From positions 1-19,419 of the IMG/VR virus record IMGVR_UViG_2645727562_000003: 19,419 nt of DNA. One strand, given 5' to 3'. Source of the DNA: a virus (taxonomy: Duplodnaviria; Heunggongvirae; Uroviricota; Caudoviricetes). The position numbers and the translations under genes were made by a program. This document shows positions 1-6,014 of this stretch, one piece after another (positions within the stretch are counted from its first letter, which is position 1; every line of letters begins with the position of its first letter). The notes under the pieces were generated by a model. That model did no database searches and was not told where the DNA came from. It was given only the letters and a program-made list of their open reading frames with translations.

Positions 1-969
1 CCCAACTTCTGAGGCGGCCTGAGATTCCATACGAATATGTGCAGAAATATGCTCTCCAATATCTATTGGTGCGAACAGGCCTGTTGTACGGTCAATAGTT
101 AAGGGGAAGATAGCTGCGCTATCTGAGGATATGGTGACTTCACCTTCACAGAAGAACGTGTCACCATTTATGGAATAAACTTTACAATCTGACCATTCCA
201 CTCGCTTCATGCGAATAGGGTTTCGGTTGAGGATGGCCTGCTTAGCCAGATAATCCACTTCTCCACCGGTTGCTTTAAAGTTCAGGTGCGTAAATTCAAA
301 CGTACCCTCCCCCTCGTACTGCAACGATTTAAACAGTGAGTACAGATCACTGTCGAATCTCAGGGTGACATTTTTATCAATGATTACTTTACTGTTCGCA
401 AGGAAAGAAGCGTTAGCAGCTGTAGACGGTACGGTGTACACCATCTGATTTTTTGAATGATTAGAGAAGTAAACATACCCGTAGGTCGCAACACTATCGC
501 GCCACGCCTGGACTACGTTAGAATTATCATAACTTGGAATTTTTGTGATCGACTGCAAAACAAGATCTTCCTGTGAGATAGCTCCGTTTACCAGATTAAC
601 ACCTCCTTGAGATGCAAGATCTTGCCTGAGTTGGTCAGGGTCATACTTCAGCACATTCGAAAAATAGAACTGCTGAGCACCGTACGCATCATAAACAGCC
701 ATAGAATGCCCTTGTACAGTAACGAACTTAGCAATCTGTCCGTTATATACAGGGTAGCCAGCAGCGTTAATGATGATTGGTTGCGAAACAGGAACGTGAG
801 AGCCATCTTCGTTCTCCACATAAACCTGAATCTGGTTTTCAGGATTTACCGGGTCAGTGTCAATTTTACCGATATAAATTTTACCATTGGCTACGGCTTT
901 AAAAGAACGAGCCATAGTGAAGAGTTGCGAAGGCATGCTTACCACAACATTTGCGGTGATATCTGTCAT
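1..969 (-). CDS. Tailspike protein, partial (N-terminal 323 codons; gene continues past the left edge of the window)
   Basis: Minus-strand ATG at 967-969 with GGAG 8 nt upstream. N-terminus [43 protein letters not shown] matches the P22 gp9 head-binding domain from memory. I checked every in-frame triplet from 1 to 969 and found no stop. After YDPDQ the sequence diverges from the P22/Sf6/HK620 tailspikes as I remember them. Not in the ORF track because it has no in-window stop. Confidence 0.85.
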
Positions 970-1069: not shown

Positions 1070-1960
1070 TCAGTAGTTATGTACTGAAGGAGGTAATTCT
1101 TTATTCTTAAGTCTCATCCATGCGGAAAGATTCGTTGGTCCGTCTGGCTCATTAATATCAACATCTCGTGTATGGTTGATTAAAACATCTCTCGCCATAT
1201 CGATAATACGGGAGAACTCATAACCGCAGTCATGACATCTGCCGGAATAGTTCGATTGAATTTGTTTTAGCGCCGGATACAGTTCGCGGAATAACGCCTG
1301 TGAGCGGTTGGCATAATCCCATAACCATACAAGGCTGTTTGCTTCTTTTGCAGAAAGCTCGTTGGTTTTCTTCTCTTGTTTGCCGATGAATTCACCTTCA
1401 AGCACTACCCTGTGGATGTACTCTACGGCCAGCGGGATTTGTTCAATTGAAAGTTCATCAATGCTGTCAATACCAAAACGCTGATGAACCATATTGTATG
1501 CATCGTCATAGCGAAGTCCTTTCTTTCCTACCAGCATGTTTACTGCATCTCGTAGCGGCGTGCGTTCAGCTACTGAAGTTTTACCGCCAATAGCCTTCCT
1601 CTCTTGTGTGGCAGTAACCATTGCGTCATATGCGCGGATAACCTTCAGCGCAAATGCTGCGCTAATCCACATGGCGTAGGAGTAAACAAGCTCCTTGCAC
1701 ACGTATGTTCCACCATATCTACCTTTCTTAGAAATGACGGGATTCTTATTCTGCATATCCGCAGAATTAAAAATTTCATTAATCAATTCAATAGTTTCAT
1801 TTCTACGCATGAAGAAAGCTGGCTGATGTTTTTCCTCCTTTCCAGACGCTACATGAAGGTCATTAAGCGAGTAACGACCCTCTGAATCCATATGAATCTT
1901 GACGTCAGAAATGATGATGCTATTAGTGCAATTTACAGTTGACTTTGCTAAGCTTGACAT
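1070..1960 (-). CDS. KilA-N domain antirepressor-like protein (occupies the position of P22 ant)
   Basis: Motif [13 protein letters not shown] and surrounding region fit the KilA-N domain. Start chosen at ATG 1958-1960 (MSSLAKSTV...) with GAGG about 10 nt upstream; the track start at 2026 is TTG with a poor SD. Same strand and operon as the arc-like gene. Confidence 0.6.
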
Positions 1961-2022
1961 ATCAATAATACCTCGTAAGTTTTGTTGATACCGAAGCCCT
2001 GACTGTTCCCGCAGTTGGGGCT

Positions 2023-2226
2023 TCAACTTTCTGCTCTATCAGTTATATCTTTCCCTTCGTATACTTCACCTATATTGCTAATGCTGGCAGAACATCCAAG
2101 ATGCTTGTATCTTATGATGTCCAACACGCAGTCACTACACAGCATCCGACCTGTTTCTTTAGAGTAAATGTATGTTTGATCAGCGTCTGATTCGCTAATG
2201 CCGCAGAAACAACATTCTTTACTCAT
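2023..2226 (-). CDS. Cys-rich small protein (67 aa), possible zinc-ribbon; unknown function
   Basis: ATG start overlaps the arc-like stop as ATGA (translational coupling). Cys pattern CCxC ... CxxC (C5, C6, C8, C30, C33). Confidence 0.45.
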
Positions 2227-2363
2227 ACCATCACCCCCTCTCTCTTCAAGCTGTCCAGCACCCGTTTAATTACTTCTGCGCTAAACGATCGACACTCTTC
2301 CTTTGCTTTCTCTTCAAGGATTTTTTCTAACTTCTCTGGCATACGCAGTGTTTTTACCTTCAT
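2223..2363 (-). CDS. arc: Arc-like ribbon-helix-helix repressor (46 aa)
   Basis: [46 protein letters not shown] resembles P22 Arc in length and in the SxEV/I..RV..S.K.EG region. ATG 2361-2363 preceded by GGAGG at 5-nt spacing. The track start at 2429 is GTG and less likely. Confidence 0.65.
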   Translation of the reverse strand: MKVKTLRMPEKLEKILEEKAKEECRSFSAEVIKRVLDSLKREGVMV

Positions 2364-2375
2364 TGCATCCTCCGC

Positions 2376-2412
2376 TGTATGTGGTACGCATACATAGTAT
2401 TTAGGTACGCAT
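2376..2412. promoter_or_regulatory. Candidate operator repeats in the divergent promoter region
   Basis: Direct repeat GGTACGCAT at 2383-2391 and 2404-2412, 21 bp centre to centre. Imperfect inverted repeat TGTATG (2376-2381) / CATACA (2389-2394). The repeats overlap the start site, -10 and spacer of the minus-strand promoter. Confidence 0.4.
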
Positions 2413-2422
2413 TGATAGTCAA
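2394..2422 (-). promoter_or_regulatory. Candidate sigma70 promoter for the arc-like / Cys-rich / KilA-N operon (Pant-like)
   Basis: Minus strand reads TTGACT (plus 2417-2422), 17-nt spacer, TACTAT (plus 2394-2399). Predicted transcription start about 24 nt upstream of the arc-like ATG, so the GGAGG SD is included. Confidence 0.5.
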
Positions 2423-2440
2423 TAGACACCTACATATCCT
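2412..2440 (+). promoter_or_regulatory. Candidate divergent sigma70 promoter for the Mnt-paralogue / mnt operon (Pmnt-like)
   Basis: TTGATA (2412-2417), 17-nt spacer, TATCCT (2435-2440). Its -35 abuts the -35 of the minus-strand promoter, sharing 1 bp. Confidence 0.4.
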
Positions 2441-2468
2441 GTGGTAAAAAATTATTCAGGGTGTGCCG

Positions 2469-2726
2469 ATGTCTGATCGTAAGTACAAAAACCCTCAAGT
2501 GAATCTGAGGCTTCCTGTAGAGATAAAGGAACGTCTTATTGAACTGGCTGAGGCTAATTCTCGTTCATTAAATGCTGAGATGGTCGCTGCACTTGAAGCA
2601 TGGACCGAAAAAAATAAACACATTCAAGCACTAGACCTTGCAACTATAGCATCACGATTGATAGATCTTGAACATGATGTTGAGAAGTTGAAATGCATGT
2701 ATGGCAACAATAAAGACGAAAGTTAG
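2469..2726 (+). CDS. Ribbon-helix-helix DNA-binding protein with C-terminal coiled-coil-like tail (Mnt paralogue, 85 aa)
   Basis: N-terminus NPQVNLRLPVEIKERLIELAEANSRSLNAEMVAALEAW parallels the RHH region of Mnt (NFRMPLEVREKLKLRAEANGRLMNSELLQIV). ATG at 2469; the track start at 2463 is GTG. Confidence 0.55.
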   Translation: MSDRKYKNPQVNLRLPVEIKERLIELAEANSRSLNAEMVAALEAWTEKNKHIQALDLATIASRLIDLEHDVEKLKCMYGNNKDES

Positions 2727-2749
2727 AGATACTAACTTGGAGTGATGGC

Positions 2750-3001
2750 ATGGCTAGAGATGATCCGCACTTTAACTTCCGTATGCCTTTGGAAGTAAGA
2801 GAAAAATTGAAATTAAGAGCCGAGGCTAACGGAAGGTTAATGAACTCTGAGTTATTACAAATCGTTCAGGATGCGCTATCAAAACCATCACCGATTGCAG
2901 GTTACCGTGACGAAGCAGAACGCATGGCTGATCAGCAAGCAGAAATTGTTAAGAAGATGGTGTTTGAAACGCTGAAGGATTTGTACAAAAAACCCACCTG
3001 A
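2750..3001 (+). CDS. mnt: Mnt repressor (83 aa)
   Basis: MARDDPHFNFRMPLEVREKLKLRAEANGRLMNSELLQIVQDALSKPSP... is near-identical to P22 Mnt as I remember it. GGAG SD about 8 nt upstream of ATG 2750. Confidence 0.85.
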   Translation: MARDDPHFNFRMPLEVREKLKLRAEANGRLMNSELLQIVQDALSKPSPIAGYRDEAERMADQQAEIVKKMVFETLKDLYKKPT

Positions 3002-3017
3002 AGGTGGGTTAATTTTT
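2991..3017 (+). terminator. Rho-independent terminator after mnt
   Basis: Stem aacccacc (2991-2998), loop tgaa, stem ggtgggtt (3003-3010), then aattttt. The mnt stop codon sits in the loop. Confidence 0.6.
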
Positions 3018-3100: not shown

Positions 3101-3280
3101 ATGGCGAAAAAACCAGGTGAAAACACAGGAAAAAACGGCGGAATATACCAAGAAGTTGGCCCACGCGGCGGTAAGAAAGACAATTTTGCAACCGTCAAGG
3201 ACAACGAAAGGCTTCCACCAACAACAAAGCCAGGTCATGGCTGGGTATTGGATAAGCGAACTCCAGACAGCAAAAAGTAA
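3101..3280 (+). CDS. YjzC-like small protein (59 aa)
   Basis: MAKKPGENTGKNGGIYQEVGPRGGKKDNFATVKDNERLPPTTKPGHGWVLDKRTPDSKK; the pattern KPG..NGG.Y.EVG ... P.T ... W resembles the YjzC-like family from memory. ATG 3101 preceded by GAGG at 6-nt spacing; the track start at 3086 is TTG. Followed by its own terminator. Confidence 0.6.
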   Translation: MAKKPGENTGKNGGIYQEVGPRGGKKDNFATVKDNERLPPTTKPGHGWVLDKRTPDSKK

Positions 3281-3308: not shown

Positions 3309-3659
3309 GATATGTCGCTCGCAGAACTCAACAAGCCTGCTCATTAAGTAGCAGTAAGTCTCGTTGGCTCTTCCTGGTTCAACATCAACACCTACCCTTG
3401 AGCAGATATCGAATGCCATGTGAGCGCACTCATGGGCAATAGTAGATAGTTTGCCATTGAACACGCCTATCACATGCAAAACACCATTCTCGCTACTCAC
3501 TGTATGAGACGCTCCGTTGGCGTCCGAGTCATGCACGTCAACGCCAAGTTTTTGATGCAGGCGTTGCCATTCTGGAAAGTCTCTACAAAACACAATTATA
3601 CCGCTCTCAAAGAGCGGAACGAGCATCTTTGGTACGTTTCCAATGTTAACTTTTTTCAT
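3294..3659 (-). CDS. Small HExxH-motif protein (121 aa), putative minimal ImmA/IrrE-like zinc metallopeptidase
   Basis: Motif TIAHECAHM followed 13 residues later by E-PGR-ANETYCYLM, resembling the ImmA/IrrE HExxH ... ExxANxFxxxLL signature. ATG 3657-3659 with AGGA at 4-nt spacing; the track start at 3698 is TTG with no SD. Overlaps an antisense plus-strand reading frame (3474-3689), so the assignment is tentative. Confidence 0.45.
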   Translation of the reverse strand: MKKVNIGNVPKMLVPLFESGIIVFCRDFPEWQRLHQKLGVDVHDSDANGASHTVSSENGVLHVIGVFNGKLSTIAHECAHMAFDICSRVGVDVEPGRANETYCYLMSRLVEFCERHIKKPE

Positions 3660-3689
3660 GGTATCCTGAGCAAAACTAAGGAGGTTGGT

Positions 3690-4079
3690 GTGAAGCAATT
3701 TCTTACTGCTATGTTCTTATTCATATCTTTTGGGGCTACAGCAGAGTGCTGGGTCGTTGGAGATATGCGCGGAATAAGCTATTCAGAACGAAATAATTTC
3801 CATCCGGAAGAAGATGGTTTTAGTGGAACATTCATCATTAAGACAAACGGTGAAGATGCCAGCATCACATATTCTGGGACAGATGCGGGCGGCATGGCTT
3901 ACAAAGCATTGTCTAAAAACTCCATCATAGGAATCGGCGCGAATGGCGAAACTCAACGCGTTATCGACTCATGGGTAATACATCCTACTGGAACAGTTTT
4001 AATGTCAAAAACCATTTCCGGTTATGGAAATATGGATTCAACCAAAGCTTTTGTTGGAAAAGTAAAAAGAAAATGTTAG
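3690..4079 (+). CDS. Secreted/periplasmic protein (129 aa precursor, predicted signal peptidase I signal peptide), unknown function
   Basis: AAGGAGG (3678-3684) 5 nt upstream of GTG 3690. N-terminus MKQFLTAMFLFISFGATA followed by ECWVVG is a canonical signal peptide (basic n-region, hydrophobic core, A-x-A site). Mature protein is Gly/Ser/Thr-rich with Cys at both ends. The track's 201-aa version from ATG 3474 lacks an SD and runs antisense through the HExxH gene. Confidence 0.55.
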   Translation: MKQFLTAMFLFISFGATAECWVVGDMRGISYSERNNFHPEEDGFSGTFIIKTNGEDASITYSGTDAGGMAYKALSKNSIIGIGANGETQRVIDSWVIHPTGTVLMSKTISGYGNMDSTKAFVGKVKRKC

Positions 4080-4103: not shown

Positions 4104-6014
4104 TTACTGCTGTGTTGCCTCAGTGGCAAGCAGCGGCCTGATGGCATTCGCAGCGTTATTCAGCGTTCTTTCATAGGCTGGCGTTCCTGCTTTGGTGTTT
4201 GCCAGACGTAAGAGAGCATTCCTTGCTGCTTTGGACTCATACAAGCGCATGATTGCACCGAAACCAGATTCAAGCGCCAGTGTTGCCCCAAGAGTCGCAG
4301 TTGCGCCAATCGTCCTTATCCTGTTGGCTTGCGATTGCCCTGTCTGAGTTACAACATTTGCGATGTCTGACCTTGCTGTTTGCTGTAGAACTTCATGAAG
4401 AGCATCAAGCTCTTTCATGTGTCTCCCACTGAATATCGTGTTATAGATCTGACCGTCAGATTGCGACTTCAACTTATTTAACTCGGTAAGAAATTTTGTT
4501 GGCGAGTCTCCTGCCTTTTCTGCAATCTTGCTAATATAAGCAGCACGCATAGCGTTCTTTCCATCTTCACTAAGAGCAGGCCATATCCTCTTAATATCTG
4601 ATGGTTTTCTGCTGAATACAACGCTGTTTATTAGCTCTGGAGTAAACTCTTTTTTAGCTTTGTTGAGATTGTTCGCAATCCTTTTATTGAGAACCTTATT
4701 GAATACGTTGGAGTAGTCAGAGTTTGCTTTGACGTATCTGGCAGCCTCTCCAGCCCCCAAATACCGTGCTGCGTTATTCCTCAAATCTGAACCCATTGCC
4801 CTCTCCACGGCATCAGTTGCGGCTTTCGCGCTATTAGGAAAAACCATGGCATCTCCCTGAATACTTTCCCTTAATGCTGACCGCAACTCTCTCAATAGTC
4901 CAAAATCTACATCTGGTTTAGCAAGTTCTTCTCGCAAATCGGATAGCCCGCGAATCAAATCCTTATTTGCCACTTTCCCAAGCCTGTTAGCCCTGGTAAG
5001 CACGTTGTCGATAACCTTAATGGATTTTGATGTGTCAACAGGTGTATCTCCCATTTTAGTTGTAATGTCTTCAATAACGCTTCCGGCTGAATCCTTCCTT
5101 GACTTCAGAGAACCATACAGATCGTCAACAACAACTGATGGGCTATATTCACCATATTTCTCAAGCTGTTTTTTAACTAGCTGACTTCTTTTTGCATACT
5201 GCTCAGCTCGCTTTGAGCCTGTTCCCAGCAAAGCCCCCTCAGCATCCTGAGTAAGACCACGAGTGAAAGCATTTTTCGGCGGGATTACATCAGATGTCAT
5301 TGGTGTCACGCCCATCGATTCTGATGTGGCAATTTTCTTCGCCACTTCTGGTGCAATATCACCTTTAAAGGCAGTTATTCCACGCTCAAGCCCTTTTGCA
5401 ACAGTATTAACAGCACCACCTGTTAGCATGCCAACACCTATATCTGTTGCCAGTTTTCCCGCATCATTTTTCTCACTGTTTGCGGCGAGCGATCCGACTG
5501 CGTTTTCTGCCAGAAGACGGGTTGCGCCTTGAGTAATTCGACCAGCAAGTGTTGGCGCCTGAGTTGAAGCGCCGCCAACGCCAACAGTAGCCAGGTAAGG
5601 CAATGCCTCCGCAAACACCCTACCTTCTGTCGTTTGTGGAGTCAGAGCACCTTGCTGAAGTCCAAACGCCTGCTCTAATCCCTGAGTTGTTACTCGTGGC
5701 GCTGGTTGATATGTTCCATCGCCAATACCGAGTTTACCGCCAGCCCATGCCGCCGCGCTTGTTACAGCATCGGCAACTGATGCTGGTATATTTGCCACAT
5801 TTACACCAGCCTGCACCAGTCCGCGACCAGTTTCTTTTACTGCTTCGCCGAGGTCAGACATAAATCCATCTTGCTGTTCTACAGGCTGCTTTTGGTTTTG
5901 AGTTGGTTGATTACTGGAGGACAGAATCTGAGCAATGCGACGCGCTCCTTCTGTATCGCCTGCCGCATCAGCGTTCCTTAATGCTGTCATCAACTGTTCA
6001 CGACTATAGGCCAT
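4104..6014 (-). CDS. Ejection (DNA-transfer) protein, P22 gp16 homologue
   Basis: 636 aa, Ala/Gly-rich, last of the three ejection genes in conserved order. GGAGGG SD; start overlaps the gp20 stop as TAATG. Confidence 0.8.
   Translation of the reverse strand: MAYSREQLMTALRNADAAGDTEGARRIAQILSSSNQPTQNQKQPVEQQDGFMSDLGEAVKETGRGLVQAGVNVANIPASVADAVTSAAAWAGGKLGIGDGTYQPAPRVTTQGLEQAFGLQQGALTPQTTEGRVFAEALPYLATVGVGGASTQAPTLAGRITQGATRLLAENAVGSLAANSEKNDAGKLATDIGVGMLTGGAVNTVAKGLERGITAFKGDIAPEVAKKIATSESMGVTPMTSDVIPPKNAFTRGLTQDAEGALLGTGSKRAEQYAKRSQLVKKQLEKYGEYSPSVVVDDLYGSLKSRKDSAGSVIEDITTKMGDTPVDTSKSIKVIDNVLTRANRLGKVANKDLIRGLSDLREELAKPDVDFGLLRELRSALRESIQGDAMVFPNSAKAATDAVERAMGSDLRNNAARYLGAGEAARYVKANSDYSNVFNKVLNKRIANNLNKAKKEFTPELINSVVFSRKPSDIKRIWPALSEDGKNAMRAAYISKIAEKAGDSPTKFLTELNKLKSQSDGQIYNTIFSGRHMKELDALHEVLQQTARSDIANVVTQTGQSQANRIRTIGATATLGATLALESGFGAIMRLYESKAARNALLRLANTKAGTPAYERTLNNAANAIRPLLATEATQQ

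Follow-up and report, generated by a model that had tools for sequence, protein, structure and literature searches.

The Arc and Mnt proteins of phage P22 are textbook models of DNA reading by beta-sheet proteins, and immI, where their genes lie, is the classic second immunity region. In P22 immI, a small gene for an Arc-type ribbon-helix-helix (RHH) protein leads the operon of the antirepressor gene ant, a gene for a Mnt-type protein of about 83 aa is read in the opposite direction from an overlapping promoter, and the antisense RNA sar lies across the start of ant. According to a passage of PMC3121763 that cites Susskind and Botstein 1975, P22 Ant inactivates not only the P22 repressor but also those of phages L, lambda and 21; what Ant does for the biology of the phage is, in the same paper, still said not to be understood (PMC3121763). 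We analyzed an immI-like locus in the IMG/VR virus record IMGVR_UViG_2645727562_000003. The window, that is, the whole contig of 19,419 bp, holds the late region of a P22-like (Lederbergvirus) prophage, reversed relative to the P22 map. A first-pass annotation had read the locus as a rewired P22 circuit, with a second Mnt-like protein placed between a pair of divergent promoters and mnt. Our comparisons uphold an immI-like module with divergent promoters, but not the rewiring: the region reads as a complete immI module of a specificity type other than that of P22 ('type 2', as in phages CUS-3 and SEN22), in which the second Mnt-like protein, of 85 aa, does not look like an insertion, and behind which a P22-type mnt gene stands as an orphan. 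Taken as one explanation, a type-2 immI module joined to a P22-type Mnt that acts in trans on the Omnt operator of superinfecting phages is what we hold to be probable.

The locus occupies a variable slot, named the "ant moron" by Villafane et al. (PMC2629481), which is the immI slot in P22. On one side lies a homologue of gene 16 (DNA transfer protein gp16, Pfam Phage_P22_gp16; 4104-6014, minus strand) and on the other a gene-called head-binding tailspike fragment (1-969, minus strand). Gene calls were taken from the source assembly (GCA_001265735.1, contig JHRZ01000044.1). The window is syntenic with P22 and CUS-3 and has the gene order of P22, and the phages nearest to it are CUS-3, phiv205-1 and Kapi1. 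The locus does contain three RHH genes, all past the cut-off of Pfam Arc (PF03869). The first, arc2 (2223-2363, minus strand; Pfam Arc 3e-8), stands at the head of the ant operon with a GGAGG ribosome-binding site 5 nt upstream of its ATG, and encodes an Arc-like protein of 46 aa (MKVKTLRMPE...) that aligns with P22 Arc but differs from it at the N-terminus. The second, mnt2 (2469-2726, plus strand; Pfam Arc 3e-10), encodes the 85-aa protein. The third (2750-3001, plus strand; Pfam Arc 9e-26 and Repressor_Mnt, PF11423, 8e-17) is the P22-type mnt of 83 aa, with 88.9% nucleotide identity to P22.

The likeness to P22 immI extends to slot, gene order and orientation, to the divergent overlapping promoters, to the small Arc-type gene that leads the ant operon and the Mnt-type gene that diverges from it, and to sar with its terminator, which are nearly identical and lie across the start of ant. 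In contrast to P22, the window has an additional gene, orf67, between arc2 and sar, an Ant with a KilA-N domain, and a second, operator-less mnt after mnt2. Furthermore, comparison with the P22 operators found no P22-type Omnt or Oarc in the window, in CUS-3 or in related loci. Because these operators are absent while the other sequence hallmarks of immI are present, the module appears to be of the same kind as that of P22 but of different specificity. Both types circulate in E. coli, where the P22-type loci retain AGGTCCAC(C/G)GTGGACCT and Oarc unchanged from P22.

Positions 2000-2976 of the window are 99.7% identical to phage CUS-3 (from E. coli K1 RS218; CP000711), the record of which has carried two annotated 'mnt' genes since 2007 and labels the arc2/orf67/operator stretch merely 'bsq2 boundary sequence'. 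About 45 complete E. coli genomes share the layout, including UTI89, IHE3034, NU14 and APEC O18, in which the NCBI pipeline PGAP labels three 'Arc family DNA-binding protein' genes at the locus, arc2 being one of them. The CUS-3, UTI89, IHE3034 and APEC O18 prophages match the window in the three RHH genes, the junction before the last of them, orf67 and the operator; CUS-3 departs from it at codon 30 of mnt (Ser), over the final 8 codons of that gene, and in everything downstream of 2976. A comparison from 2008 described CUS-3 as apparently without arc, so that its control of ant must differ from that of P22 (PMC2629481). Since the 46-aa Arc-like gene with its GGAGG ribosome-binding site is present in CUS-3, this published absence was a gap in annotation. 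The stacked-mnt layout has been public since 2007 yet is uncharacterized, and our literature searches found neither this operator type nor stacked mnt genes described.

The two divergent sigma70-like promoters lie where the first-pass annotation had put them. The leftward one, equivalent to Pant (2394-2422, minus strand), has the -35 hexamer TTGACT (2422-2417), a 17-bp spacer and the -10 hexamer TACTAT (2399-2394); the rightward one, equivalent to Pmnt (2412-2440, plus strand), has TTGATA (2412-2417), a 17-bp spacer and TATCCT (2435-2440). Their -35 hexamers do not abut, as had been stated, but overlap by one base, 2417. Each matches 9 of 12 positions in a sigma70-like consensus scan, in which the number of sites was not above chance (4 in 1.5 kb versus 3.2 +/- 1.5 in shuffles). 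Both promoters are retained in 13 loci from 8 genera with constant hexamer positions and constant 17-bp spacers. The rightward -10 varies among TATCCT, TATTCT, TAATCT and TACTAT at a fixed distance, always preserving TA...T, and the leftward one between TACTAT and TAATAT. An alternative plus-strand promoter, TAGACA-18-AAAAAT, was dropped because other genera do not conserve it. The geometry differs from that of P22: there, each promoter has its -35 over the -10 of its partner, with starts about 38 bp apart, whereas in the window a single base is common to the -35 hexamers and about 60 bp separate the predicted starts.

The control region also contains the 9-bp direct repeat and the TGTATG/CATACA inverted repeat that had been noticed at first. 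GGTACGCAT occurs exactly at 2383-2391, around +1 of the leftward promoter, and at 2404-2412, within its spacer, 21 bp further on; there is no other exact copy in the 19.4-kb window, and the inverted repeat surrounds the first copy. The direct repeat lengthens to 16 nt with 14 of 16 positions matching. In dinucleotide shuffles of 2364-2468, an exact 9-mer repeat arose in 104 of 5000 (2%) and a 14/16 repeat of 16 nt in 2 of 2000 (0.1%). The two repeats belong to an array of three GGTAYGYA boxes in exact 21-bp (two-turn) phase. Box O1 (2376-2394) comprises the first copy inside a 19-bp dyad, TGTATG-N7-CATACA, with arms at 2376-2381 and 2389-2394, over the predicted leftward start. Box O2 (2404-2412) is the second copy, lies in the leftward spacer and abuts the rightward -35. 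Box O3 (2425-2432), which had been missed, is a degenerate third copy, GACACCTA, exactly 21 bp past O2 and in the spacer of the rightward promoter. In E. coli O3 is degenerate, mostly GATACCTA, while it is perfect as GGTACGCA or GGTATGTA in Photorhabdus and Chimaeribacter; viral contigs range from perfect, some with the GGTACGCA of Photorhabdus, to degenerate. The TGTATG...CATACA hairpin had drawn a terminator-like call, but a dyad in the DNA at the start site is the better reading.

Conservation is concentrated on these elements. Across the 13 loci from 8 genera, the 64-bp non-coding core (2377-2440) is 78-95% identical to the window, while the flanking genes in the same comparisons are 56-63% (arc2) and 57-80% (mnt2) identical at the nucleotide level. 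Beyond the promoter hexamers, the conserved bases are those of the dyad (about 2376-2394), of GGTAYGYA at 2383 and 2404, and of the third copy at 2425, and O1 is invariant or nearly so both in these loci and among the 39 distinct variants that 80 viral contigs contain. It is very probable that the repeats are operator elements. They are unrelated to the operators of P22, a palindromic 17-bp Omnt and a 21-bp Oarc, against which the window sets three direct boxes and one dyad. As an analogy of working principle, the right operator of lambda likewise places three unequal sites over two divergent promoters (PR and PRM), with the weakest over the repressor's own promoter; however, the lambda repressor has a helix-turn-helix and not an RHH fold, the boxes here are direct repeats at 21-bp spacing, and we do not extend the analogy to activation or cooperativity.

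The 85-aa reading frame proved to be a real and conserved Mnt-like gene, as had been proposed: its family forms 141 clusters at 90% identity across Enterobacterales, with a dN/dS of 0.02-0.17. The strand of Mnt2, R-x-Y-K-x-P-Q-V-N-L-R-L-P, is essentially invariant among 39 homologues (invariant residues R4, Y6, K7, P9, Q10, N12, L13, R14, L15 and P16). An AF2 model (pLDDT 77) places the two helices of an RHH fold at 17-29 and 34-48 and a long C-terminal helix at 57-79, which probably holds Mnt2 together as a tetramer. By sequence and fold its nearest solved relatives are Arc and Arc-FV10 (strand KMPQVNLRWP versus KNPQVNLRLP in Mnt2). It shares PHROG 795 with P22 Mnt over the full length, but its strand is Arc-like (PQVNLR, versus PHFNFR in P22 Mnt) and it has no match to Repressor_Mnt (PF11423). 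Mnt2 is Mnt-like in its architecture and, probably, in its role, but it is not a strict member of the Mnt family. The PDB entry 9PIO ('Arc family DNA-binding protein') was set aside as irrelevant, being a ClpXP substrate complex.

Database labels would suggest that the 85-aa protein, the 46-aa protein or both are antitoxins or partition-type proteins and not immunity repressors. The names of PHROGs 795 and 2685 and the annotation of SEN22 read 'partition protein ATPase', and there are weak FitA-like, TraY and RHH_5 Pfam matches, all below cut-offs. However, the proteins have no ATPase domain and no toxin is adjacent, the genes keep a fixed place between gene 16 and the tailspike and next to ant and sar, and the best solved relatives are Arc and Mnt. 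As P22 Mnt itself belongs to PHROG 795, the label is an annotation error, and we give this explanation hardly any credence.

Which protein serves the module as its own repressor is indicated by loci that have no third RHH gene. Carriers of the arc2-operator-mnt2 unit that have no P22-type mnt include an E. coli O104:H4 prophage, Salmonella phage SEN22, E. coli Z1323, further Salmonella and Klebsiella prophages and, with 48-59% identity of Mnt2, Phlomobacter, Xenorhabdus, Photorhabdus, Chimaeribacter and Arsenophonus; the last of these instead carries a different extra Mnt-like gene after mnt2. Among IMG/VR contigs with the type-2 operator core and enough downstream sequence, 61 of 72 have no third RHH gene and 11 have one. 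The two-RHH modules, such as those of SEN22, O104:H4 and Photorhabdus/Xenorhabdus/Arsenophonus, have the same unit, promoters and boxes as the window, but in most of them the slot after mnt2 is empty or filled with unrelated genes. Because the unit exists without any P22-type mnt, and by analogy with P22, the 85-aa protein appears to be the cognate Mnt-equivalent of the module. Two Klebsiella pneumoniae contigs (L031 and L032) have arc2-operator-mnt2 beside tail-terminator and Big_2 genes in a phage that is not P22-like, with no ant gene called nearby in L031; the module moves from one phage type to another.

In the rewired circuit of the first-pass annotation, all three RHH proteins would act on 2364-2468; the P22-type Mnt could, for example, bind one of the boxes or form mixed oligomers with Mnt2. 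Three genes do flank a single control region, three boxes could be matched to three proteins, GTGG of box O1 is also found in the Omnt half-site GTGGACC, and Mnt2 and P22 Mnt fall into one PHROG over their full length. Yet most carriers have the identical control region with just two RHH genes, the third protein reads DNA with the N-terminus of P22 Mnt, the 17-bp palindromic operator of which is absent here, and four different kinds of Mnt fill the third position while the operator stays constant. A shared three-protein circuit is therefore improbable in our judgement. Instead, we assign the boxes to Mnt2 as candidate sites because they and the Mnt2 strand make up the one pair of partners in the module that does not vary, and because the boxes contain TAG(G/A) like Arc half-sites, which would fit the shared Gln/Asn/Arg strand. 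Covariation gave no information on which protein reads which box, as both the Mnt2 strand and the boxes are invariant. The N-terminus of Arc2 falls into two groups (KVKTLRMP versus SSVRFP/VSVRMP) that covary with ATAGTAT versus ATATTA at 2394-2400, but this amounts to effectively one evolutionary event, is confounded with the -10 hexamer, and serves as a lead only.

The third RHH gene differs from the other two in having no control elements of its own. Homology to P22 starts at about 2732, around +1 of the P22 mnt transcript, and covers leader, ribosome-binding site, gene and terminator: the junction and P22-derived leader with its ribosome-binding site (CTAACTTGGAGTGATGGC) lie at 2732-2749 (plus strand), as aligned with P22 and with E. 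coli P22-type loci, and the same bidirectional intrinsic-terminator-like hairpin that follows mnt in P22 lies at 2991-3010 and would end the rightward mnt2-mnt transcript. The gap between mnt2 and mnt is 23 nt and contains neither a terminator nor a promoter, so that the mnt2 promoter would also drive the P22-type gene; this arrangement indicates co-transcription of mnt2 and P22-type mnt to the terminator at 2991-3010. The N-terminal 13 residues of the protein are identical to those of P22 Mnt (MARDDPHFNFRMP), including the R2, H6, N8 and R10 of the Mnt strand. Its operator, however, is missing from the locus. For the 15-mer of P22 Omnt (AGGTCCACSGTGGACCT) no site with up to 3 mismatches exists in the window, and for the 17-mer there is nothing with up to 4 mismatches in the window, the whole CUS-3 genome, STEC346 or the Salmonella loci. 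A hidden cis operator was also considered and rejected, the 17-mer hits with 5 mismatches in the window and the CUS-3 genome being at chance level and in distant genes. P22-type mnt is a promoterless, operator-less orphan from which P22 Pmnt, Oarc and Omnt have been lost, and because they are gone its product has nothing P22-like to bind locally. Nor would a co-resident P22-type immI be its usual target, since only 6 of 299 E. coli genomes carrying P22-type mnt have two copies. A mosaic breakpoint lies within mnt itself at about 2976-3001, where the tail reads KDLYKKPT and is P22-like in the window and KKMYETR in CUS-3 (L006, 7510-7534); orphan P22-type alleles in viral contigs have at least 4 different C-terminal tails.

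Genes of this kind have been placed behind mnt2 more than once. Two distinct P22-type junctions exist, AGATAC|TAACTTGG in the window and CUS-3, and TAA|TGTCAATACAC in Salmonella contigs L023-L026, where the TAA stop of mnt2 directly precedes TGTCAATACAC, P22-type mnt follows, and Omnt is likewise absent. Each junction retains the P22 ribosome-binding site and precisely removes promoter and operators. In E. coli LI60C3 and two viral contigs, a gene for another protein, Mnt3 (MKTKVRDIAPYSVRMP), overlaps the mnt2 stop. In phages 611R6 and phiv205-1, Mnt3 serves as primary repressor of a third immI type, which has an unrelated intergenic region; a search for this region in LI60C3, the window and CUS-3 gave isolated 11-mers in coding regions only, and because it was not found there Mnt3 in LI60C3 is an orphan as well. 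Furthermore, Arsenophonus has a Mnt3-like gene 100 bp after mnt2, and contig L072 has a fourth kind of Mnt, MSREEPQINIRVS. The window retains a fossil of mnt3: its first seven codons (IKTKVRD versus MKTKVRD, with ATG changed to ATA) overlap the end of mnt2 in the +1 frame at 2710-2731 (plus strand), and each of six consecutive differences between the window and LI60C3 (2709-2730) hits a third codon position in the mnt3 frame and is synonymous there. In the lineage of the window, an earlier mnt3 thus seems to have given way to the P22-type cassette. Foreign Mnt-type genes have been added behind mnt2 on several independent occasions. In one further contig (IMGVR_UViG_2534682161_000023, L052), mnt2 is frameshifted in an A-run, leaving a 56-aa product, and the downstream P22-type mnt is intact; the frameshift may come from an error in sequencing the homopolymer, or the primary repressor may truly have been lost.

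The orphan might still be a functionless passenger of mosaic or illegitimate recombination that is slowly decaying within an otherwise type-2 immI and owes its transcription solely to its place behind mnt2. The cognate operator is absent, the copy in the window has a unique Ser30Leu change at a nearly invariant RHH position, the slot after mnt2 elsewhere holds Rap1a, a lipoprotein, ORFs of unknown kind or a terminator alone, and genetic flux in the region is very high (PMC2629481). Against decay, all 8 sampled orphan P22-type copies are intact, and 7 of them retain MARDDPHFNFRMP with its DNA-reading residues unchanged, the remaining one having a conservative Met12Ile; their dN/dS is 0.03-0.24 even though dS reaches more than 1, a supportive value only, because mosaic alleles make this test of selection unclean. 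There are also at least two independent P22-type junctions, the slot has received three further types of foreign Mnt-like gene, and each P22-type junction drops promoter and operators cleanly while keeping the P22 ribosome-binding site. On account of the two P22-type junctions, the other foreign Mnt genes in the slot and the intact copies, selection and not accident appears to account for the orphan, and we judge a mere passenger to be unlikely, although not negligibly so. Phages L, ST64T and ST104 likewise keep a Mnt-type gene without a cognate arc-ant of the same specificity (PMC2629481, PMC8022706), but they have no ant, and the mnt-like gene in them is a solitary one whose conservation has been called rather poor, whereas the orphan of the window rides behind a complete, different immI and retains the P22 DNA-reading residues.

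Several points weigh against a selected, trans-acting Mnt. The mnt-like gene that phage L keeps without ant is regarded by the authors as possibly a remnant, and the orphan mnt-like genes of L and ST64T have been read in the same way (PMC8022706); P22-like phages recombine heavily here, with ten types in sixteen genomes (PMC2629481); and mnt went undetected by RNA-seq in lysogens of the related phage Kapi1 (PMC12922286). The low dN/dS could have built up in operator-bearing phages before import by recombination, the alleles being mosaic. The pairing of proteins with boxes is a putative one, drawn from position, conservation and analogy with P22. Finally, codon 30 of the window's P22-type mnt (2837-2839) is TTA, for Leu, at a nearly invariant RHH position that is Ser in P22, in CUS-3, in STEC346 and in all but one of the further Mnt- and Arc-family sequences set beside them (the GRS motif at the start of helix B), the sole other non-Ser residue being Thr in a Photorhabdus Arc-like homologue. 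In an alignment of the RS.N.E motif of Arc-family proteins at the start of helix B, this copy has L for the S of the motif, and Ser30Leu was seen in no other contig of the collection. The copy in the window may bind DNA poorly, or the base may be an error.

With a type-2 immI and a trans-acting P22-type Mnt as the preferred explanation, the locus would operate as follows. The leftward promoter would drive arc2, orf67 and ant, with sar covering the ribosome-binding site of ant, and the rightward promoter would drive mnt2 and, behind it, P22-type mnt. In a lysogen, by analogy with P22, Mnt2 would occupy the 21-bp-phased GGTAYGYA boxes, its binding to O1 and O2 shutting off arc2-ant, while the weak O3 in the spacer of Mnt2's own promoter could allow negative autoregulation. 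After infection, Arc2 would shut the region down, as Arc does in P22. Given that P22 Ant also acts on heterologous repressors, any prophage would be exposed to the Ant of a superinfecting phage whose immI is of another type, a gap that a borrowed Mnt would close. The P22-type Mnt would repress in trans, at Omnt, the ant of superinfecting phages with a P22-type immI; the incoming broad-spectrum Ant would be kept off, so that the resident repression would not be lifted, the prophage not induced and the host not killed. The prophage would in this way hold immI immunity of two specificities. We infer this immunity in trans from the orphan state of the gene, its recurrence and the known biology. 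A broader version, in which P22-like prophages accumulate foreign Mnt genes as an 'anti-antirepressor immunity array' that blocks induction by Ant, combined with a new RHH operator mode (three direct 21-bp-phased boxes, a Mnt-like tetramer and an Arc-type strand), is in our view a tentative possibility that we would not yet bet on.

The remaining genes of the leftward operon show its mosaic make-up. arc2 and ant are co-directional, with genes overlapping or adjacent, and between arc2 and sar/ant lies orf67 (2023-2226, minus strand), the start and stop of which overlap its neighbors. It encodes a Cys-rich protein (CCFC...CSDC) of 67 aa that matches PHROG phrog_7150, of unknown function, over the full length (3e-50), has no Pfam match and is possibly zinc-binding, by its cysteines. 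orf67 is identical in E. coli STEC346, where PGAP leaves it unannotated; in other loci its slot is taken by small ORFs (57, 73 or 89 aa) that are unrelated to it, and P22 has none. sar (1962-2028, plus strand) matches Rfam RF00262 over the full model (1-68; 69.7 bits, gathering threshold 43, E 6e-13), is complementary to the ribosome-binding region of ant and to the 3' end of orf67, and ends in a P22-like terminator hairpin. That hairpin (about 1993-2024) is almost identical to P22 though the flanking arc and ant are not, and sar looks like a conserved mosaic boundary. ant (1070-1960, minus strand, ATG at 1960; gene call) encodes 296 aa with an N-terminal KilA-N domain (Pfam, 1e-19) and a C-terminal P22_AR_C domain (3e-28). 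P22 and many loci that share the control region have an ant with P22_AR_N instead, and since the same control region occurs with either domain, the N-terminal domain of ant is swapped independently of the control module. Downstream of mnt the window follows P22, with a homologue of ORF59a that has a weak YjzC-like match (3101-3280, plus strand); where P22 has sieA, it carries a 201-aa ORF with no family match (3474-4079, plus strand), and the cargo here differs from that of CUS-3.

The locus represents a natural and widespread alternative specificity of immI, with an operator core conserved from E. coli to Photorhabdus, and it corrects the published view that CUS-3 lacks arc. Mnt2, which pairs the architecture of Mnt with an Arc-type recognition strand, provides a comparative system for RHH specificity. 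Should the orphan copies be inert, the stacking would be nothing more than a mosaic junction of the ordinary kind, in a part of the phage genome that is hypervariable. The repeated addition of foreign Mnt genes stripped of promoter and operators nevertheless provides a testable idea, that prophages defend themselves in this manner against induction by heterologous antirepressors, and if the reading of these genes as an immunity array is true, inter-phage warfare would be indicated as the natural role of Ant and immI.

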